From a virus, in the UHGV virus genome UHGV-0074814: a DNA stretch of 52,958 nucleotides. One strand, 5' to 3'. This document shows positions 4,222 through 29,165 of the stretch, piece after piece; the first letter of the stretch is position 1, and each line of letters begins with the position of its first letter. The notes under the pieces were generated by a model that saw nothing but the letters and a program-made list of their open reading frames with translations, was not told where the DNA came from and did not search any database. Made by a program: the position numbers and the translations under genes.

Positions 4222-4659
4222 ATGTTTTATAGTCCATCATTAAACATTTTTGTGAATCCTGCGCTTAAGGATGATTACATTAATGCAAATTCATGGCCAG
4301 ATGATGCTCTGGCTGTCAGTGATGATGTTTATAATGAATTTGCAATCAATACGCCCCCATATGACAAAATTCGTGTTGCAGGAAAAAATGGATTACCCAC
4401 ATGGGCACTAATACCTCCACCATCGCATGAAGAACTTATTCAACAGGCAGAATCAGAAAGGCAATTATTGCTTAATCAGGCCAACGAATACATGAACAGT
4501 AAACAATGGCCCGGTAAAGCCGCTATTGGTCGTCTGAAAGACGAGGAACTGGCACTATATAATTTGTGGCTGGATTACCTGGACGCACTGGAACTGGTGG
4601 ATACCTCCAGTGCTCCAGATATTGAATGGCCTACACCTCCGGTAACTCAGGCCAGCTAA
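4222..4659 (+). CDS. tail fibre assembly protein (alternative copy, silent orientation)
   Basis: C-terminus LVDTSSAPDIEWPTPPV matches conserved Tfa C-terminal motif VDTSTAPDIEWP. Confidence 0.6.
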   Translation: MFYSPSLNIFVNPALKDDYINANSWPDDALAVSDDVYNEFAINTPPYDKIRVAGKNGLPTWALIPPPSHEELIQQAESERQLLLNQANEYMNSKQWPGKAAIGRLKDEELALYNLWLDYLDALELVDTSSAPDIEWPTPPVTQAS

Positions 4660-23018: not shown

Positions 23019-23542
23019 ATGTACTCCAATGAAGAAACCAGCGAAATAGCTGCCTTCATTCGTAGTAAACCTTTTTCATCAACGCAGTAATGGATTCTTT
23101 GAAGAGTCGCAATCAATACAACTCACTAATGGAGAGACTTGTCTCACGCATGAGACAAATTTCCCGTTTGAATTAATGGACACTATAGAGGGACAGAATG
23201 CCTTCCTCACTCGAATCACATCAATTAAGGAAGTTCAACATGTTTCATTCCACAAGTCATCAGGCTGTAATTATGGCAGCATCAGTTTGTGCCACAGACC
23301 TTTTCCGCTTCACTTTGAGCCTGATTCATTTCTACCTGACCGGCTCGCTTCTATCTTTTTAATCCCCGCTTTATCCAAATTGCATTGCCAGAATGCCGAC
23401 AACAGACTGACATTCAAATCCTGACTACCTCCAATAGTCTGACCGTACACCTATATAGTTTTAATTTTCATCAATCCATTTAACTATCGTTTAATTGTTG
23501 TCACATAGGATTCTGCCGTTTTTAACAATGCAGGATAATAAG

Positions 23543-23836
23543 ATGAAAAAAATGTTGTTTTCTGCCGCTCTGGCAATGCTTATTACAGGATGTGCTCAAC
23601 AGACGTTTACTGTTGGAAACAAACCTACAGCAGTAACACCAAAGGAAACCATCACCCATCATTTCTTCGTTTCGGGAATTGGGCAGAAGAAAACTGTCGA
23701 TGCAGCAAAAATTTGTGGTGGTGCAGAAAATGTTGTTAAAACAGAAACCCAGCAAACATTCGTAAATGGATTGCTCGGTTTTATTACTTTAGGCATTTAT
23801 ACTCCGCTGGAAGCGCGTGTGTATTGCTCACAATAA
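23543..23836 (+). CDS. bor: Bor-family lipoprotein (serum resistance protein)
   Basis: MKKMLFSAALAMLITGCAQ lipobox signal and near-identity to lambda Bor as recalled; opposite strand to lysis genes as in lambda; SD AGGA. Confidence 0.8.
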   Translation: MKKMLFSAALAMLITGCAQQTFTVGNKPTAVTPKETITHHFFVSGIGQKKTVDAAKICGGAENVVKTETQQTFVNGLLGFITLGIYTPLEARVYCSQ

Positions 23837-23867: not shown

Positions 23868-24329
23868 CTATCTGCACTGCTCATTAATATACTTCTGGGT
23901 TCCTTCCAGTTGTTTTTGCATAGTGATCAGCCTCTCTCTGAGGGTGAAATAATCCCGTTCAGCGGTGTCTGCCAGTCGGGGGGAGGCTGCATTATCCACG
24001 CCGGAGGCGGTGGTGGCTTCACGCACTGACTGACAGACTGCTTTGATGTGCAACCGACGACGACCAGCGGCAACATCATCACGCAGAGCATCATTTTCAG
24101 CTTTCGCATCAGCTAACTCCTTCGTGTATTTTGCATCGAGCGCAGCGACATCACGTTGGCGCACCTGCATGTCAGTAATTGTCGAGTTCGCCAGCTTCAG
24201 TTCTCTGGCATTTTTGTCGCGCTGGGCTTTGTAGGTAATGGCGTTATCACGGTAATGATTAACCGCCCATGACAGACAGACGATGATGCAGATAACCAGA
24301 GCGGAGATAATCGCGGTTAATCTGTTCAT
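23868..24329 (-). CDS. spanin inner-membrane subunit Rz
   Basis: Near-identical to lambda Rz as recalled; follows endolysin gene. Confidence 0.85.
23927..24109 (-). CDS. spanin outer-membrane lipoprotein Rz1 (embedded in Rz, alternative frame)
   Basis: Embedded ORF with lipobox VVVGCTS and proline-rich C-terminus, as in lambda Rz1. Confidence 0.75.
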
Positions 24330-24802
24330 ACCTCAATCTCTCTGACCATTCCGCCCGCTTCTTTGAATTTTGCAATCAGGCTGTCAGCCTTATGCTCGAA
24401 CTGACCATAACCAGCGCCCGGCAGTGAAGCCCAGATATTGCTGCAACGGTCGATAGCCTGACGAATATCACCGCGATCAATCATCGGTAAAGCGCCACGC
24501 TCTTTAATCTGTTGCAGTGCCACAGCGTCCTGGCTTTTCGGAGAGAAGTCTTTCAGGCCAAGCTGCTTGCGGTAAGCATCCCACCAGCGTGAAAGAAGTT
24601 GATAACGGCCTGCAGCTGTTGATTTGAGTTTCGGGTTTAGCGTGACAAGTTTGCGAGGGTGATCGGAGTAATCAGTGAAGAGTTCTCCACCGACAATAAC
24701 GTCATAACCGTGGTTACGTGTCGGTTGTCGCCCGTTATCCGTTCCCTCTGACCATGCCACCATATCCAGGAAAGCTTTACGCTGGGAATTTAGTACCTGC
24801 AT
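24326..24802 (-). CDS. endolysin (lambda R-type lytic transglycosylase)
   Basis: Sequence nearly identical to lambda R as recalled ([20 protein letters not shown] ...). Confidence 0.85.
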
Positions 24803-24805
24803 AAA

Positions 24806-25132
24806 TTACTCCTTAGAGCCACCAAACTTGTTACCGATTACTCTCATTGCAGCCCCACGAATAGCATCAACACCGATCAGCCCCACCCCACCACCAATGG
24901 CAACAGATAGTGATTTAGGCCATCCGACATACTCAAGAGCGGATGCAAAAGTCAGCGTCAGAGCGCCACAGAGTAGAATTTCGAGTGTTTTTCGCTTCCA
25001 GCCGCCACCACCGCCAAAATAGGCAATACGTAAACCAGCCATAACAATCGACATAATCACTGCGCCCAGCGGTGTGTCTCCACGCCACCAGCTCTGGACC
25101 AACTCCAGCCATGTATTTGGGTTATGAGGCAT
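24806..25132 (-). CDS. holin (putative)
   Basis: 108 aa with hydrophobic helices and charged C-terminus, immediately upstream of endolysin. Confidence 0.6.
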   Translation of the reverse strand: MPHNPNTWLELVQSWWRGDTPLGAVIMSIVMAGLRIAYFGGGGGWKRKTLEILLCGALTLTFASALEYVGWPKSLSVAIGGGVGLIGVDAIRGAAMRVIGNKFGGSKE

Positions 25133-25283
25133 TTGTAGTTATCTCTCACCTCGCTGATACAGCAGGTGCAAATTGAGGAAACATCATGTACCGCAAATCA
25201 GAAGCGGAAACGTCAAAGAAGCCGAGTCAATGGATAACTGCGGGATAGGCTAGGACCAAGGAATCCCCAGACCCAGAAACGAC

Positions 25284-25306
25284 AAAACCCGCTCGATGGC
25301 GGGTTT
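25284..25306 (-). terminator. hairpin terminator upstream of holin (tR'-like candidate of the late operon)
   Basis: Stem aaacccgc/gcgggttt with 6-nt loop; on minus strand followed by TTTTGTCGTTT. Confidence 0.4.
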
Positions 25307-25350
25307 AAGCTGTGTGGCGAAGTGAGCACACTTAACAGATTACGATATTT

Positions 25351-25379
25351 TTTGCGTACGCGTTAGTGTTTTGATAGAA
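25351..25379 (+). promoter_or_regulatory. candidate sigma70 promoter for the cargo cassette
   Basis: TTGCGT (25351-25356), 17-bp spacer, TAGAAT (25374-25379), 44 bp upstream of the ATG at 25424. Confidence 0.3.
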
Positions 25380-25423
25380 TTTTCAGCCACATAAAAATTC
25401 ATTCTTATAATTCGGGATATATA

Positions 25424-26599
25424 ATGGATATAACTTGTTTAGAATGTGGCAATGTTCTTGACGACCCAACTGTAGCTTGCGATAAATGCGGTGCCACGCC
25501 TCATGTTGTAGTGCTGGGCAAACAATCGTACTTTCCTATTGGTGCTGTAACAGCAAATCTTGAAAAAAATGATTCAAGAGCATTTGATTATCGATTAGGT
25601 GAAGTTTGGGATCTAAAAAATGAAGTCACATCTGAATTCATAACCAGAATTGAGAAAAAATTTAGCCGAAAAAACAAATTTCATAACTTCCTAGACTCAG
25701 ATCACAACCCTTCATCCATTCCTACGATCCTAAAAAAATACATTAATAAAAATAATGAATTCATTGATTTATCTAGAGCTATAATAGAGAAGCTTAAACA
25801 TAATGCTAATAACGAATCGAGAGTTGCCCAACTTCAGGGGGGGAGCGTTGTTTTCATCCACTATAAGTCTACCGAACCAGAGGATTTGGGGAAACTTCTA
25901 ATCGTAATGGTTGATAAACAAAGCGCCTATGACTTTGATTCGGATAAGTTGACCCCAACAAGATTAAATCCAATTAATACCGATGCCTTACGGCAGGCTG
26001 CGATGTTCGATTTAACTTTATTCGAAGCCAGTTATCCAGAAAACAAGGGTGACTCATATGTACATTTCTTGCAAGGTAAATCTAAAAGCGATTTTTTCAA
26101 AGACTCATTAGGTTGCCGACATGATTCGGACAATAAAAGAAGCATTCAGCAATTATTCAGTGCTATAGATATTTTTGCTAGTAAAAACTCACTCGGTCGT
26201 GTACTGCGTGATACTATTGACAATGAAGTTAAATCCTTACTGGAAAAAAAATCAAAAGATAAACACGGAAATAAGTCCGTTAAGATAGAGGATATTTCAA
26301 AAATAATTGACTCATGCCTGACTGATTCACACAAATGTAAGGGAACGTTTGTCGATTTTGTTAATCTTAATGGTTTCCAGATTGACCCTCAATTTGAACC
26401 AACTCCTAAAGCAGCTGAAAGCGCGCTTACAATTGAAGTGGCAGATAACGACAATAATTTTAAGTTGAAAATAATGCGTGGAGCTATTGGAGACGAAAAG
26501 TCAAATAAGCCTGTAATTCTCACTGACAACAAATGCGAAATTGTGATAAAATTGAGTCAGGCAAATTATGATGAACTCAAAAGATATAGAGACAGCTAA
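25424..26599 (+). CDS. zinc-ribbon protein with NdpA/YejK-like (NA37 nucleoid-associated) domain; candidate defence component A
   Basis: N-terminal CLECG-N10-CDKCG zinc ribbon; central GGSVVFIHY...YVHFLQGKSKSDFFKDSLGC resembles YejK GGIVLFCHY...[23 protein letters not shown]; AT-rich relative to flanks. Confidence 0.5.
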   Translation: MDITCLECGNVLDDPTVACDKCGATPHVVVLGKQSYFPIGAVTANLEKNDSRAFDYRLGEVWDLKNEVTSEFITRIEKKFSRKNKFHNFLDSDHNPSSIPTILKKYINKNNEFIDLSRAIIEKLKHNANNESRVAQLQGGSVVFIHYKSTEPEDLGKLLIVMVDKQSAYDFDSDKLTPTRLNPINTDALRQAAMFDLTLFEASYPENKGDSYVHFLQGKSKSDFFKDSLGCRHDSDNKRSIQQLFSAIDIFASKNSLGRVLRDTIDNEVKSLLEKKSKDKHGNKSVKIEDISKIIDSCLTDSHKCKGTFVDFVNLNGFQIDPQFEPTPKAAESALTIEVADNDNNFKLKIMRGAIGDEKSNKPVILTDNKCEIVIKLSQANYDELKRYRDS

Positions 26600-26601
26600 T
26601 A

Positions 26602-27816
26602 ATGACAATTGCTGATGACTTATCAAGATTAGCGCAGATTATTAACGGAGCCTCAAGCAGAGTTGAGGGCTACTACACTGTCATAAGTCTTGAAGAAAGC
26701 ATTGTTATTGTAAATAGTTCTGAAATAATTAGACTGTTACAATCTATAGGTTATAAAAAGGCAACAACCTGCATCGAAAATAATGAAATTTGGCTAGATC
26801 GCCAAGCTTCATCTTGGGATGATGCTATAATTTATGAGAATGTTGAGTCTTTTTGGTCTAGAGTAAACACCCAAAACGCTCTTCCGAAAAATTATATCAT
26901 CGGAACGCCGTTAATACTCCCTACTTCTAAGAATGAAAGCATCGAAAAAATCCATATTTTCTTTATGTGGAAAGATATCCTTTCATTAATTTCTGATCAT
27001 CATAACAGTGACTGCTCTGTCTTATTTTTCACCAATGAAGACAAAAGTTATACAGTCGAACTCACGCATTTTTTACAATATAGCGAGATTAATCGCTTAT
27101 CGAACTCGTCTCTTAAATATGAAATTATAAAGGAGCTTCTCGACACAATAAAAATCAATGATTTACACAAAAGCGAGCGCAAGCTCGTTATACGCTCAGC
27201 CATAAACGAAGTATTTAAAGCAAATGGTACGTTCAATTTCTTTGACTTGCTTAACTCTACTGAACTCGTCAGGAAAAAATATGATGAACTATATGAGATT
27301 TACACAAAGAGGTTTTCTGTAAATAAAATTCTTAACGAACTCGATGAGAAAAATCTTGAGTTCACGAGTAAAATTAACGAATTCATATCATCTAATCAGA
27401 CAAAAGCATTGACTATTCCCGGTGCATTAATAGCAGCTGGTGGCTTAGTGAAGGCTAATGAAACAACCGAAGCAATATTGATTATCGCAGGACTTTGGAT
27501 GATAAAAAAAGTCAATTACATTTCTATTGAGATATTCAATGAAACATTCGACAACTTACGTTCTCGAGTGGAGTCCGCTTTCGATAAGTATTTAAAGTTT
27601 GAAGAAAATAAAGAAATCAAAGATAATGCAGATAGTATTAAGAGTAGCATTACAGGTTTGATTGATAAAGCTAAAAAAAGGATGAGAACTGTTAAATATC
27701 TCGCATCAGCCATGTTTTATGGAGGCCTTATTTACGTTGGATATAAACAGTTCCCAGTCTTTTTTGAAAAATCGGCAGTAAATCTATTTTATTTTTTATG
27801 CCATACTATAAGCTAA
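26602..27816 (+). CDS. membrane protein with two C-terminal TM helices; candidate defence component B (effector?)
   Basis: Starts 3 nt after the stop of the upstream gene; hydrophobic segments ALTIPGALIAAGGLV...AILIIAGLWMI and YLASAMFYGGLIYVGY. Confidence 0.5.
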   Translation: MTIADDLSRLAQIINGASSRVEGYYTVISLEESIVIVNSSEIIRLLQSIGYKKATTCIENNEIWLDRQASSWDDAIIYENVESFWSRVNTQNALPKNYIIGTPLILPTSKNESIEKIHIFFMWKDILSLISDHHNSDCSVLFFTNEDKSYTVELTHFLQYSEINRLSNSSLKYEIIKELLDTIKINDLHKSERKLVIRSAINEVFKANGTFNFFDLLNSTELVRKKYDELYEIYTKRFSVNKILNELDEKNLEFTSKINEFISSNQTKALTIPGALIAAGGLVKANETTEAILIIAGLWMIKKVNYISIEIFNETFDNLRSRVESAFDKYLKFEENKEIKDNADSIKSSITGLIDKAKKRMRTVKYLASAMFYGGLIYVGYKQFPVFFEKSAVNLFYFLCHTIS

Positions 27817-28167
27817 CATTGCTAAACAGCCATCAACAAACCCCATTGCAGTTTGCAGTTCCTTCCTAATTGTGCCATCAGAGCATTTTCTCTTCTTCGC
27901 AATAGTGCGTAATGAGATACCGATAACAAAGTGGGCGATGATGAGCTCATATTCCTCTGGTTTATACCTTCTCAACCGAGCCACACAACTGTCTATCATG
28001 ATGCCTTCGTCATCATCACACTGAATCCGTGACTTTTTGCCATGAGGTAAAAGTCCCTTGAAACCAGCCGCTATCGGCTGCCAGTCCACTCCGCTATTGT
28101 CTGAAGCAGCCCAAGCTCCCCAACGATCCATTACTTCATACATATCACGCATCAACTTTCTCCACAA
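27796..28167 (-). CDS. late-gene antiterminator Q-like protein (small Q family)
   Basis: 123 aa; position upstream of lysis region after DUF968 gene; family assignment from memory of small Q proteins (QuuD-like). Confidence 0.5.
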   Translation of the reverse strand: MWRKLMRDMYEVMDRWGAWAASDNSGVDWQPIAAGFKGLLPHGKKSRIQCDDDEGIMIDSCVARLRRYKPEEYELIIAHFVIGISLRTIAKKRKCSDGTIRKELQTAMGFVDGCLAMLAYSMA

Positions 28168-28169
28168 AA

Positions 28170-29165
28170 TCAGGCCAACACACCAATTGCCAGCGCACGA
28201 TCGATAAAACGAAATATCAACTCCAGCTGGGAGCCATACTTCTCTTCAAATGCCACGGTATCCGCATGCAGCTCGTCGTGATGCTTTCTGCACAAAGGCA
28301 ACACAAAGAGGTCATGCGCTTTTGTTCCCATTCCACCCTGACCGTGACCTATCAGGTGGTGGGGATCATCAGCAGGCTTTCCACAACATGCACACGGCTG
28401 TGTCTTAACCCAGCGCGTGTACTTTTCATTAACCCAGCGGCGACGTTTTGGGCGTAACATAAAAGACTCCGGCGACTCCGGATCCACTTTCAGCGCCAGC
28501 ACCTTTTTTGCCTTATCCTGGATGATGCTGGTGGCAGGAACCGAAGGCACAAGGTCACTTTCCCGGGTGACAGACGGCACAACAGGCTTTGGTAATCTCA
28601 GTGCCTTACGGGCTGCACTTTCCGGTAAGGCATCCGCCAGGTCATTACGAATCAGCCACCAGCACAGTTCCGGCATTGTCACAACGTGACTATCATCAAA
28701 ACCGAGATCCCGACGCACAACAGACAACACCCAGCGGGCACAGTTATCCGTTGCCATTGATTCCAGCCGTTCCGTGAACTGATCGCGCAGCTGGTTATCG
28801 CAGTGCCAGCACAGACGGATTGCGCCCGTAGCGTGTCGCATTGTTGTCATATTCTCGCTGTGCCAGTCGGAATGAGGCCACTGGCAGCCTTTTTCACGAA
28901 GTAACCAGCTTTCAAGACATTCCACGCCACCAGCACGACGGATCACTGCCTCATTGCGGAACACGGCCCGAACGGCAGGATCATCCGCCAGCGGTTGTGA
29001 TGCCGCCGGAACGGCACCACTGGCGAAAGATGAATAACGTTCCGGCTCAGGCTCCAGCAGGACACGCCCCTGCATAAACAAGGGCATCAGCTCTGAACCT
29101 GGTCTGAACAATACGATCCCCATACGCGGGGCAATTTCAGGGGTCAGTAGTGCTCTCACGGTCAC
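28170..29165 (-). CDS. DUF968 domain phage protein (HNH-like C-terminus)
   Basis: 331 aa; C-terminal CACCGKPADDPHHLIGHG...CRKHHDELH motif typical of DUF968. Confidence 0.55.
   Translation of the reverse strand: MTVRALLTPEIAPRMGIVLFRPGSELMPLFMQGRVLLEPEPERYSSFASGAVPAASQPLADDPAVRAVFRNEAVIRRAGGVECLESWLLREKGCQWPHSDWHSENMTTMRHATGAIRLCWHCDNQLRDQFTERLESMATDNCARWVLSVVRRDLGFDDSHVVTMPELCWWLIRNDLADALPESAARKALRLPKPVVPSVTRESDLVPSVPATSIIQDKAKKVLALKVDPESPESFMLRPKRRRWVNEKYTRWVKTQPCACCGKPADDPHHLIGHGQGGMGTKAHDLFVLPLCRKHHDELHADTVAFEEKYGSQLELIFRFIDRALAIGVLA

Follow-up and report, generated by a model that had tools for sequence, protein, structure and literature searches.

A probable Q-dependent late control module, set apart from its antiterminator gene by a cargo slot, in a lambdoid prophage

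The virus genome UHGV-0074814 (52,958 nucleotides, analysed over its whole length and referred to here as the window) carries at 25372-25277, on the minus strand, what appears to be the Q-dependent late control module of a lambdoid prophage, separated from the gene for the antiterminator Q by a slot that holds an anti-phage gene pair, DS-1. We assign a probability of roughly 80% to the joint model of conserved module, probable Q site, late -10 and start, terminator, and cargo slot with an overlapping cargo promoter. The positions and conservation of these elements, the match between repeat and Q, and the compensatory changes in the terminator stem come from sequence comparison over a set of about 150 related loci. 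On this basis we infer the following course of events. A sigma-70 promoter, with TAATCT as -10 and no good -35, would start late transcription near 25330, and without Q the transcript would stop at the hairpin 25306-25285 to leave an RNA of about 50 nt. Q bound to the repeat and loaded onto RNA polymerase would permit read-through into the holin, endolysin and Rz genes; as Q acts in trans, the 2.4-kb distance from Q to the module would not matter. The slot promoter would drive DS-1 toward Q and compete with the late promoter for RNA polymerase, while Q binding would occlude the cargo -35. The elements are as follows.

25372-25284, minus strand: conserved module of ~90 bp
25350-25365, minus strand: probable Q-binding element TAACGCGTACGCAAAA, with the inverted-repeat core GCGTACGC at 25361-25354
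25342-25337, minus strand: predicted late promoter -10, TAATCT
25329-25331 (near 25330), minus strand: predicted late transcription start, by homology to the DLP12 Cappable-seq start
25328-25307, minus strand: conserved leader, family consensus GAGTGGTyACTTmGnCACnnnGCTTAA
25306-25277, minus strand: predicted intrinsic terminator (tR' equivalent), stem 25306-25285, AAACCCGC-CATCGA-GCGGGTTT followed by a T-run
25352-25357, plus strand: predicted cargo promoter -35, TTGCGT, inside the conserved module
25375-25380, plus strand: predicted cargo promoter -10, TAGAAT, after a 17-nt spacer, with TG at 25372-25373
Near 25387, plus strand: predicted cargo transcription start

A first, sequence-only reading of the window had taken 25133-25423 as the only non-coding candidate for the late control region, on the grounds that the Q stop overlaps the 3' end of cargo gene B. 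The list of open reading frames (ORFs) bears this out: 25133-25423 is the sole non-coding DNA from Q to the holin gene, and the 3' ends of Q and gene B overlap tail-to-tail by 21 nt, so that no non-coding DNA follows Q. The placement of the late promoter and Q-utilisation site in this stretch is supported by the comparison, which narrows their probable location to 25372-25284. Within the comparison set, the module always lies downstream of a small Q21-family Q (PF06530). Local blastn of the window against phage SfII showed 24318-25372 and 27842-28700 to be shared, with another convergent two-gene cargo in between, while Stx2a_1447 shares only 25284-25372 and 27825-28700, around yet another convergent cargo; in Stx2a_1447 the block is followed by a small ORF, a methylase gene, tRNAs and stx2. 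The 89-bp block is present in 87 phage records, for example 434B, PA-2, cdtI, SfIV, Stx1 phages and Klebsiella phages. In the cargo-less Stx2 phage 1720a-02, it begins 16 nt past the Q stop, upstream of a methylase gene and stx2.

A survey across genera, using one genome per species and a degenerate leader pattern, returned 45 loci, about 38 of which are real. These come from Escherichia, Shigella, Salmonella, Citrobacter, Klebsiella, Enterobacter, Kosakonia, Yersinia, Serratia, Rahnella, Erwinia, Pantoea and Tatumella, among others, and every real locus has a small Q upstream of the block on the same strand. The distance from Q stop to block is -20 to +16 nt in 12 cargo-less loci and 0.3-2.9 kb otherwise; in the window it is about 2.42 kb (27796 to 25372). 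The predicted promoter thus follows Q immediately in the 12 cargo-less relatives and not in the window; the mechanism does not depend on where it lies relative to Q, which is a matter of family custom.

The cargo-bearing relatives have nothing conserved downstream of Q, and homology to SfII and Stx2a_1447 ends within Q itself, at 27842 and 27825 respectively, which indicates that the cassette carries the last 10-15 codons of Q along with it. This bears on an alternative in which the late promoter and Q-loading site are antisense elements within gene B, placed where Q ends or immediately after it, and the block provides only tR' and the holin leader, so that a Q-modified polymerase would cross 2.4 kb of antisense cargo. 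The textbook lambdoid late promoter does directly follow Q, and a weak minus-strand promoter-like site is found at 27526-27499. However, the DNA past Q is unrelated among cargo-bearing relatives, the block abuts the Q stop in cargo-less ones and leaves no room for a second promoter, and both an element matched to the Q type and the mapped DLP12 start fall inside the block. We regard such an arrangement as highly improbable. The C-termini of Q vary between phages and are overlapped by the end of the cargo gene; the SfII Q is without 13 residues (around SDNSGVDWQPIAA) kept by all other window-type Q proteins, and is maybe impaired.

The assignment of the repeat as the probable Q site within the module rests on the way it varies in step with the Q helix-turn-helix. 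In late-sense numbering (25360 minus the window coordinate) the inverted repeat spans positions -3 to +8, its centre being 15.5 bp upstream of the -10 and near -27.5 relative to the predicted start. Each of seven repeat classes has a single partner among seven classes of Q helix-turn-helix, with 0 exceptions in 41 loci:

GCGTACGC: Q helix-turn-helix SLRxIAKKRKCSDGTIRKELQ, the class of the window
TTTACGTACGTAAA: Q helix-turn-helix TFMSLAxKHxCSDGxIGKKLQ, the class of DLP12
GCGG(T/A)CCGC: Q helix-turn-helix SKRxxAxxRKKxEKxIRIExQ
TTCGT(T/A)ACGAA: Q helix-turn-helix SKSxIARxxKxSEGxxRNxLM
TGCG(C/T)TACGCA, TGGAATTCCA and TGTAATTACA: each with its own Q helix-turn-helix variant

Both TTTACGTACGTAAA and GCGGTCCGC would be non-cognate repeats for a window-type Q. 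An independent sample of 110 elements was drawn from IMG/VR by selecting on ACGCGTACGCAAAA only. All 89 of those with enough upstream DNA have a window-type Q, located 582-3001 bp away and never adjacent. As the pairing holds across many different cargos, genetic linkage alone is unlikely to explain it. The mere uniqueness of GCGTACGC is not evidence, given that it occurs once in the window against 0.6 expected by chance.

The predicted late -10 corresponds to a TAnnnT found at positions 18-23, a fixed distance from the repeat, in nearly every homologue. A -10 at AAAAAT (25352-25347), with TAATCT serving as a pause element, was attractive since phage 21 has an AAnnnT -10 followed by a TAnnnT pause. 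This was rejected because AAAnnT (positions 8-13) is not conserved in other Q classes and the DLP12 start is located downstream of TAnnnT. The experimental start belongs to DLP12 alone, at the base equivalent to the one predicted by homology for the window: the MG1655 Cappable-seq list contains a plus-strand start at U00096.2 576452 (PMC4782308, supplementary file 1), which falls on position 30 or 31 in the DLP12 block, 7-8 nt past its TAnnnT -10. A listed start would land in any one 3-nt window with a chance of about 0.5%. Per-position conservation in 94 unique sequences, chosen without regard to the leader, shows that positions 24-55 are conserved. No structural claim is made for a small leader hairpin (GUGG...CCAC), as its pairs are not consistently kept across genera.

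At two leader positions where the family consensus holds at 85-91%, the window has another base: +1 (A to T, 25330) and +5 (G to C, 25326). These departures could indicate a decaying relic, in which the changes at +1 and +5 inactivated Q-dependent control and only the cargo promoter is functional, the more so as many such prophages are defective, DLP12 included. Several observations speak against decay. About 80 E. coli genomes have this leader variant too, with 99.7% identity over the whole Q-to-lysis stretch, and it is found twice in IMG/VR. The ORFs of Q, holin, endolysin and Rz are all intact. Furthermore, both changes fall in the predicted small 5' hairpin, where one base pair is lost and two are gained, which resembles compensation more than decay. 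A relic is therefore considered very unlikely.

Two candidates associated with the block or its leader were set aside: a CRP site annotated inside the block of the PA-2 record is a poor match to consensus, and HnrS, a 66-nt prophage small RNA (PMC13502914) considered as the leader transcript, comes from a prophage, Sp12, that has a 229-residue Q of another type and does not carry the block; a leader variant carrying CUUCU has no match in E. coli. In DLP12 (locus L010 of the comparison set, about 4340-4375), two further late-sense promoters adjoin the start of nmpC. A strong Cappable-seq start, U00096.2 576081, lies after the TATTAT of one of them; the second is sigma-E-like, GAACT-16-TCAC, and matches the start used by Rueggeberg 2015, as far as that start can be deduced from the primers in Table S1 of PMC7918800. 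Transcripts from both must cross the terminator of the block. The sigma-E-type promoter was rejected as the Q-dependent promoter, lying ~355 bp upstream of the block in DNA specific to the nmpC-proximal region.

The minus-strand terminator-like hairpin that the sequence-only reading had pointed out is confirmed at 25306-25285, by folding and by its conservation in 38 loci. The stem has 8 pairs (5 of them G-C) and a 6-nt loop, and is followed by TTTTGTCGTTT. For the predicted leader RNA (25331-25276) the folding energy is -17.8 kcal/mol (z = -2.87), and none of 200 shuffled sequences folds as well. The hit to the terminator consensus is weak on its own, with 9 terminator-like sites found in 3.7 kb against 3.1 expected from shuffles. 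However, a hairpin with a T-run beginning +25 to +40 from the predicted start recurs in the 38 related loci with at least 6 stem sequences: AAACCCGC/GCGGGTTT, AACCTCGC/GCGGGGTT, CCCTGCC/GGCGGGG, AGCCTCGGC/GCCGGGGCT, AAAACCTCG/CGAGGTTTT and CCCTGTCA/TGACGGGG. The sequences differ among genera and the pairing is kept, which is the pattern of compensatory change. The terminated RNA is predicted to be about 50 nt in the window and 50-68 nt across loci. In a few modules that have the Q site, -10 and conserved leader, no recognisable intrinsic terminator is found within ~95 nt (loci L137, Kosakonia; L150, Tatumella; L155, Rosenbergiella; L162, Trabulsiella; and L165).

In another alternative, the block is a constitutive small-RNA gene with an RNA of ~50 nt, the repeat is the operator of another regulator, and the lysis genes are expressed from other promoters or through early transcription that reads into them, with no Q loading at the block. 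In its favour, conservation of the leader goes well beyond what a mere spacer would call for, RNAs terminated downstream of a late promoter can have a regulatory role, as in the case of StxS (PMC7547250), the leader has no sigma-dependent pause element that could be found, and DLP12 has other promoters upstream of the block (the sigma-E promoter and the strong start 576081). Against this stand the match of the repeat to the Q helix-turn-helix class across unrelated cargos and the constant location of the block between Q and the late genes or stx, abutting Q when there is no cargo. In addition, a search of Rfam at gathering and E-value thresholds matched no family to the block. We consider a small-RNA gene in place of a late promoter unlikely, although the two roles are not mutually exclusive.

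The probable Q-dependent module shares DNA with the predicted promoter of the cargo. The presence of TTGCGT-17-TAGAAT on the plus strand, proposed in the sequence-only reading as the cargo promoter, holds true, and the spacing recurs widely: an opposite-strand TAnnnT at exactly 17 bp from TTGCGT is found in 56 of 85 unique IMG/VR contexts, compared with a background of 2.8%. A simple promoter scan missed this promoter, because TTGCGT matches TTGACA at 3 of 6 positions. Among genome loci, a TAnnnT at 16-18 bp is present in 17 of 31 that bear cargo and 1 of 13 that are cargo-less (Fisher p = 0.006), the spacing being exactly 17 bp in 16 of the 17. The cargo -10 retains only the key T, A and T positions amid cargo-proximal DNA that is otherwise unrelated. 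Its retention across unrelated cargo DNA suggests that the predicted promoter is resident to the slot and does not come with each cargo.

TTGCGT is the reverse complement of ACGCAA, that is, half of the Q site with two flanking bases, and the cargo -35 thus overlaps the probable Q site. The late and cargo promoters are arranged back-to-back, with predicted starts about 57 bp apart (~25330 on the minus strand and ~25387 on the plus strand); counted from the late start, the cargo -35 spans -22 to -27, and the two promoters have about 30 bp of DNA in common. Of this divergent pair only the late-sense start is mapped, in DLP12 alone. The sequence-only reading had envisaged a compact bidirectional region in which late and cassette transcription collide. 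While both promoters do appear to be in the stretch, they are divergent and their transcripts do not overlap, so the two cannot collide there. Transcription converges in other places, namely across the cargo and where gene B meets Q, against transcription coming through Q. The predicted polymerase footprints do overlap, so the promoters should compete, and Q on its site would cover the cargo -35. The sequence thus supports promoter competition, together with a possible occlusion of the cargo -35 by Q.

A number of points weigh against the joint model. No good -35 is conserved for the late promoter, under either reading of the -10. The leader has no TAnnnT sigma-70-dependent pause element between +1 and +25, whereas known Q systems require one; the nearest pause-like hexamers, (T/C)ACTTC at +7 to +12 and an AAGAGT overlapping the start, either miss key positions or sit in the wrong place. 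The single mapped DLP12 start is weak (score 1.7) and belongs to a homologue with a different Q subtype. Its placement depends on an offset of 777 or 778 between U00096.2 and U00096.3 that is our own calculation from the known IS1 and 1-bp differences; this offset fits the second start, 576081, which then lies 7 nt past a TATTAT -10. The Cappable-seq starts listed for DLP12 of MG1655 include no minus-strand start for a divergent promoter, and the Term-seq tables consulted (PMC7815308) list no 3' end close to the terminator of DLP12. The probable Q site of the window is an inverted repeat of 8-14 bp, and the solved site of Q21 a direct one. The correspondence of Q type and repeat type could partly stem from genetic linkage. 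Finally, the leader changes at +1 and +5 mean that activity of the module in the strain of the window is not guaranteed.

A comparison with phage 21 is instructive, as the window shares with it a PF06530 Q, a sigma-R4-like DNA-binding fold and a compact ~90-bp module, with the Q site upstream of a -10-type hexamer and the first terminator ~45-50 nt from the start. The Q21 site consists of two direct TGAGCA repeats at -25 to -12, between -35 and -10, and a -10-like pause element occurs just past the start (PMC6606751; bioRxiv 10.1101/651190). A phage 21-type late promoter recovered from IMG/VR loci reads TTGACA, TCAT, TGAGCA, AA, TGAGCA, AACACT, ATTCGC, A(+1)TAAGCT, with a hairpin and seven T residues after the pause region. 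The 15.5 bp that separate the centre of the window repeat from TAnnnT are also the spacing between the downstream Q21 subsite, measured from its centre, and the pause element. In contrast, Q21 has 162 residues and a long loop in its DNA-binding motif, as opposed to 118-123 residues and a plain helix-turn-helix for the window Q. Two direct-repeat subsites 8 bp apart, as for Q21, were not found, the repeat being inverted in every class. Phage 21 also has a perfect TTGACA -35 and a TAAGCT pause at +2 to +7, where the window has no good -35 and no identifiable pause, and its promoter abuts Q, whereas a cargo slot intervenes in the window.

DLP12 (quuD, nmpC, essD-rrrD-rzpD) and PA-2 (lc) have the same order as the window of small Q, convergent moron, block and lysis genes, and the DLP12 lysis operon is under the control of a Q-type antiterminator according to Rueggeberg 2013, as that work is cited in PMC7918800. 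However, the DLP12 Q is of a different subtype (46% identity, repeat TTTACGTACGTAAA); its cargo is a porin located about 370 bp from the block, compared with the defence pair of the window, and its spacer holds the additional promoters, including the sigma-E one, with no opposite-strand TAnnnT at 17-bp spacing. The lambda 6S RNA and the StxS of 933W/Sp5-type Stx phages follow the same logic of a constitutive late promoter, a short RNA from early termination and Q-dependent read-through into lysis genes or stx. They differ in the family or subtype of Q, in the greater length of the leader (194 nt and 258 nt), in a promoter immediately downstream of Q, and in the lack of a divergent promoter over the Q site.

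In a more far-reaching reading, the small Q proteins would form a distinct mechanistic subclass, with a two-fold symmetric site near -27.5, a promoter that has no -35 and no separate pause, and a toggle that sets late genes on and defence off. The -10 of the promoter would then itself act as the sigma anchor for Q loading. We offer this proposal tentatively and consider it doubtful.

The genes on either side of the module, and the remaining DNA between it and the holin gene, are as follows.

27796-28167, minus strand: antiterminator Q, of the small Q21/933W-family type (PF06530, E 3.2e-47)
26602-27816, plus strand: cargo gene B, second component of DS-1 (NCBIfam NF053869, DS1_2_antiphage)
25424-26599, plus strand: cargo gene A, YejK-like nucleoid-associated anti-phage protein of DS-1 (NCBIfam NF053868; Pfam NA37)
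25133-25276, minus strand: holin 5' untranslated region, common to phage SfII (blastn homology 24318-25372)
24806-25132, minus strand: holin S, the first late gene (PF05106; annotations of homologous phages)
24326-24802, minus strand: endolysin, downstream of holin S
23868-24329, minus strand: Rz, after the endolysin

The Q ORF has 123 codons from a TTG start, with an ATG at 28152 as the likelier start of a 118-residue protein. The match to the Q21 structures 6JNX and 6P18 is weak and aligned only over residues 13-91; the C-terminal region gives sigma-R4/ECF-like helix-turn-helix hits and is predicted to have the plain fold, without the long Q21 loop. A promoter scan of the holin 5' untranslated region detected no promoter-like site. 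The GC content drops to ~0.34 over 25300-27850, which is consistent with foreign cargo. Gene A scores 451 bits against NF053868 (cut-off 330) and gene B 375 bits against NF053869 (cut-off 315). The two adjacent genes are a DS-1 anti-phage system, and protection by this allele is predicted. Validation of an anti-phage role, for DS-1 as well as for its YejK domain, comes from the DefensePredictor study (PMC13092281); PADLOC 2023 has no model for DS-1. The terminator scan found no plus-strand terminator after gene B. Minus-strand terminator-like hairpins occur within the cargo, antisense to it, at 27187-27174, 26805-26790 and 26280-26265, and may curb read-through arriving from Q. Just downstream of Rz, on the opposite strand and inside a low-GC patch (23050-23800), a 113-residue lipoprotein ORF (MKKMLFSAALAMLITGC..., 23495-23836, plus strand) resembles the lambda bor/iss moron in position and appearance.

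At least 18 unrelated cassettes were found in the slot between Q and the module, and their ORFs nearly always run opposite to the late genes, that is, convergent with Q. Defence-flavoured domains scoring below family cut-offs include a Dam-like methylase, a QatA/KAP-like ATPase, a RelA/SpoT-like protein and an AAA ATPase. Genes with a DS-1A-like YejK domain, accompanied by a partner of ~400 residues, occupy the same slot in the Klebsiella phages Kp4865-4 (L011) and P7641 (L012), in Shigella flexneri (L164/L178) and in a Serratia metagenome-assembled genome (L177); the DS-1B of the window is too diverged to cluster with the partners of these genes. The slot resembles the defence hot spots of P2 and P4 (PMC9122126) in its fixed position and its many unrelated, swappable cassettes, several of them defence-like. 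Unlike those hot spots, it lies between Q and its own late promoter, and its resident promoter would overlap the Q site.

A displacement of the control region from Q by about 2.7 kb through cargo insertion had been put forward from the window alone. The figure is correct for the distance from Q stop to holin, and too large for the module itself (about 2.42 kb). It is also the case that cargo separates Q from the module, yet this is no one-off event: the slot is always occupied for the Q subtype of the window, in 89/89 of the IMG/VR loci with enough upstream DNA. The layout with an occupied slot is likewise seen in DLP12 (nmpC), PA-2 (lc), SfII, cdtI and Stx1/Stx2 phages. The locus is one member of a widespread family and a variant, not a copy, of the Q21-type module. 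In outline, the order of Q, convergent moron, control DNA and lysis genes has long been known from DLP12 and PA-2. A limited literature search did not find a description of Q sites in the form of inverted repeats and of their match to classes of Q helix-turn-helix, of the constant slot occupation for the Q subtype of the window, or of the slot itself or a resident divergent promoter over the Q site.

The comparison shows where the predicted late promoter, the terminator and the probable Q site lie in a broad class of lambdoid prophages, Stx1 and Stx2 phages included, with Stx2a_1447/WGPS2, Stx1_14040, 1720a-02, SfII, cdtI and DLP12 among its members. In this class the DNA just past Q is cargo and not control DNA, which matters for the comparison and cloning of q/stx 'late promoter regions'. 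The pairing of Q helix-turn-helix and repeat provides a specificity table that is open to direct binding assays. With its own predicted promoter and at least 18 cassettes, DS-1 among them, the slot is a practical place to seek new defence systems. The overlap of the cargo -35 with the probable Q site suggests that prophage induction may be coupled in a simple way to the shut-off of prophage-encoded defence. If true, this would constitute a toggle, whereby one Q-binding event turns the late genes on and the defence cargo of the slot off, and an induced prophage would silence its own defence system.

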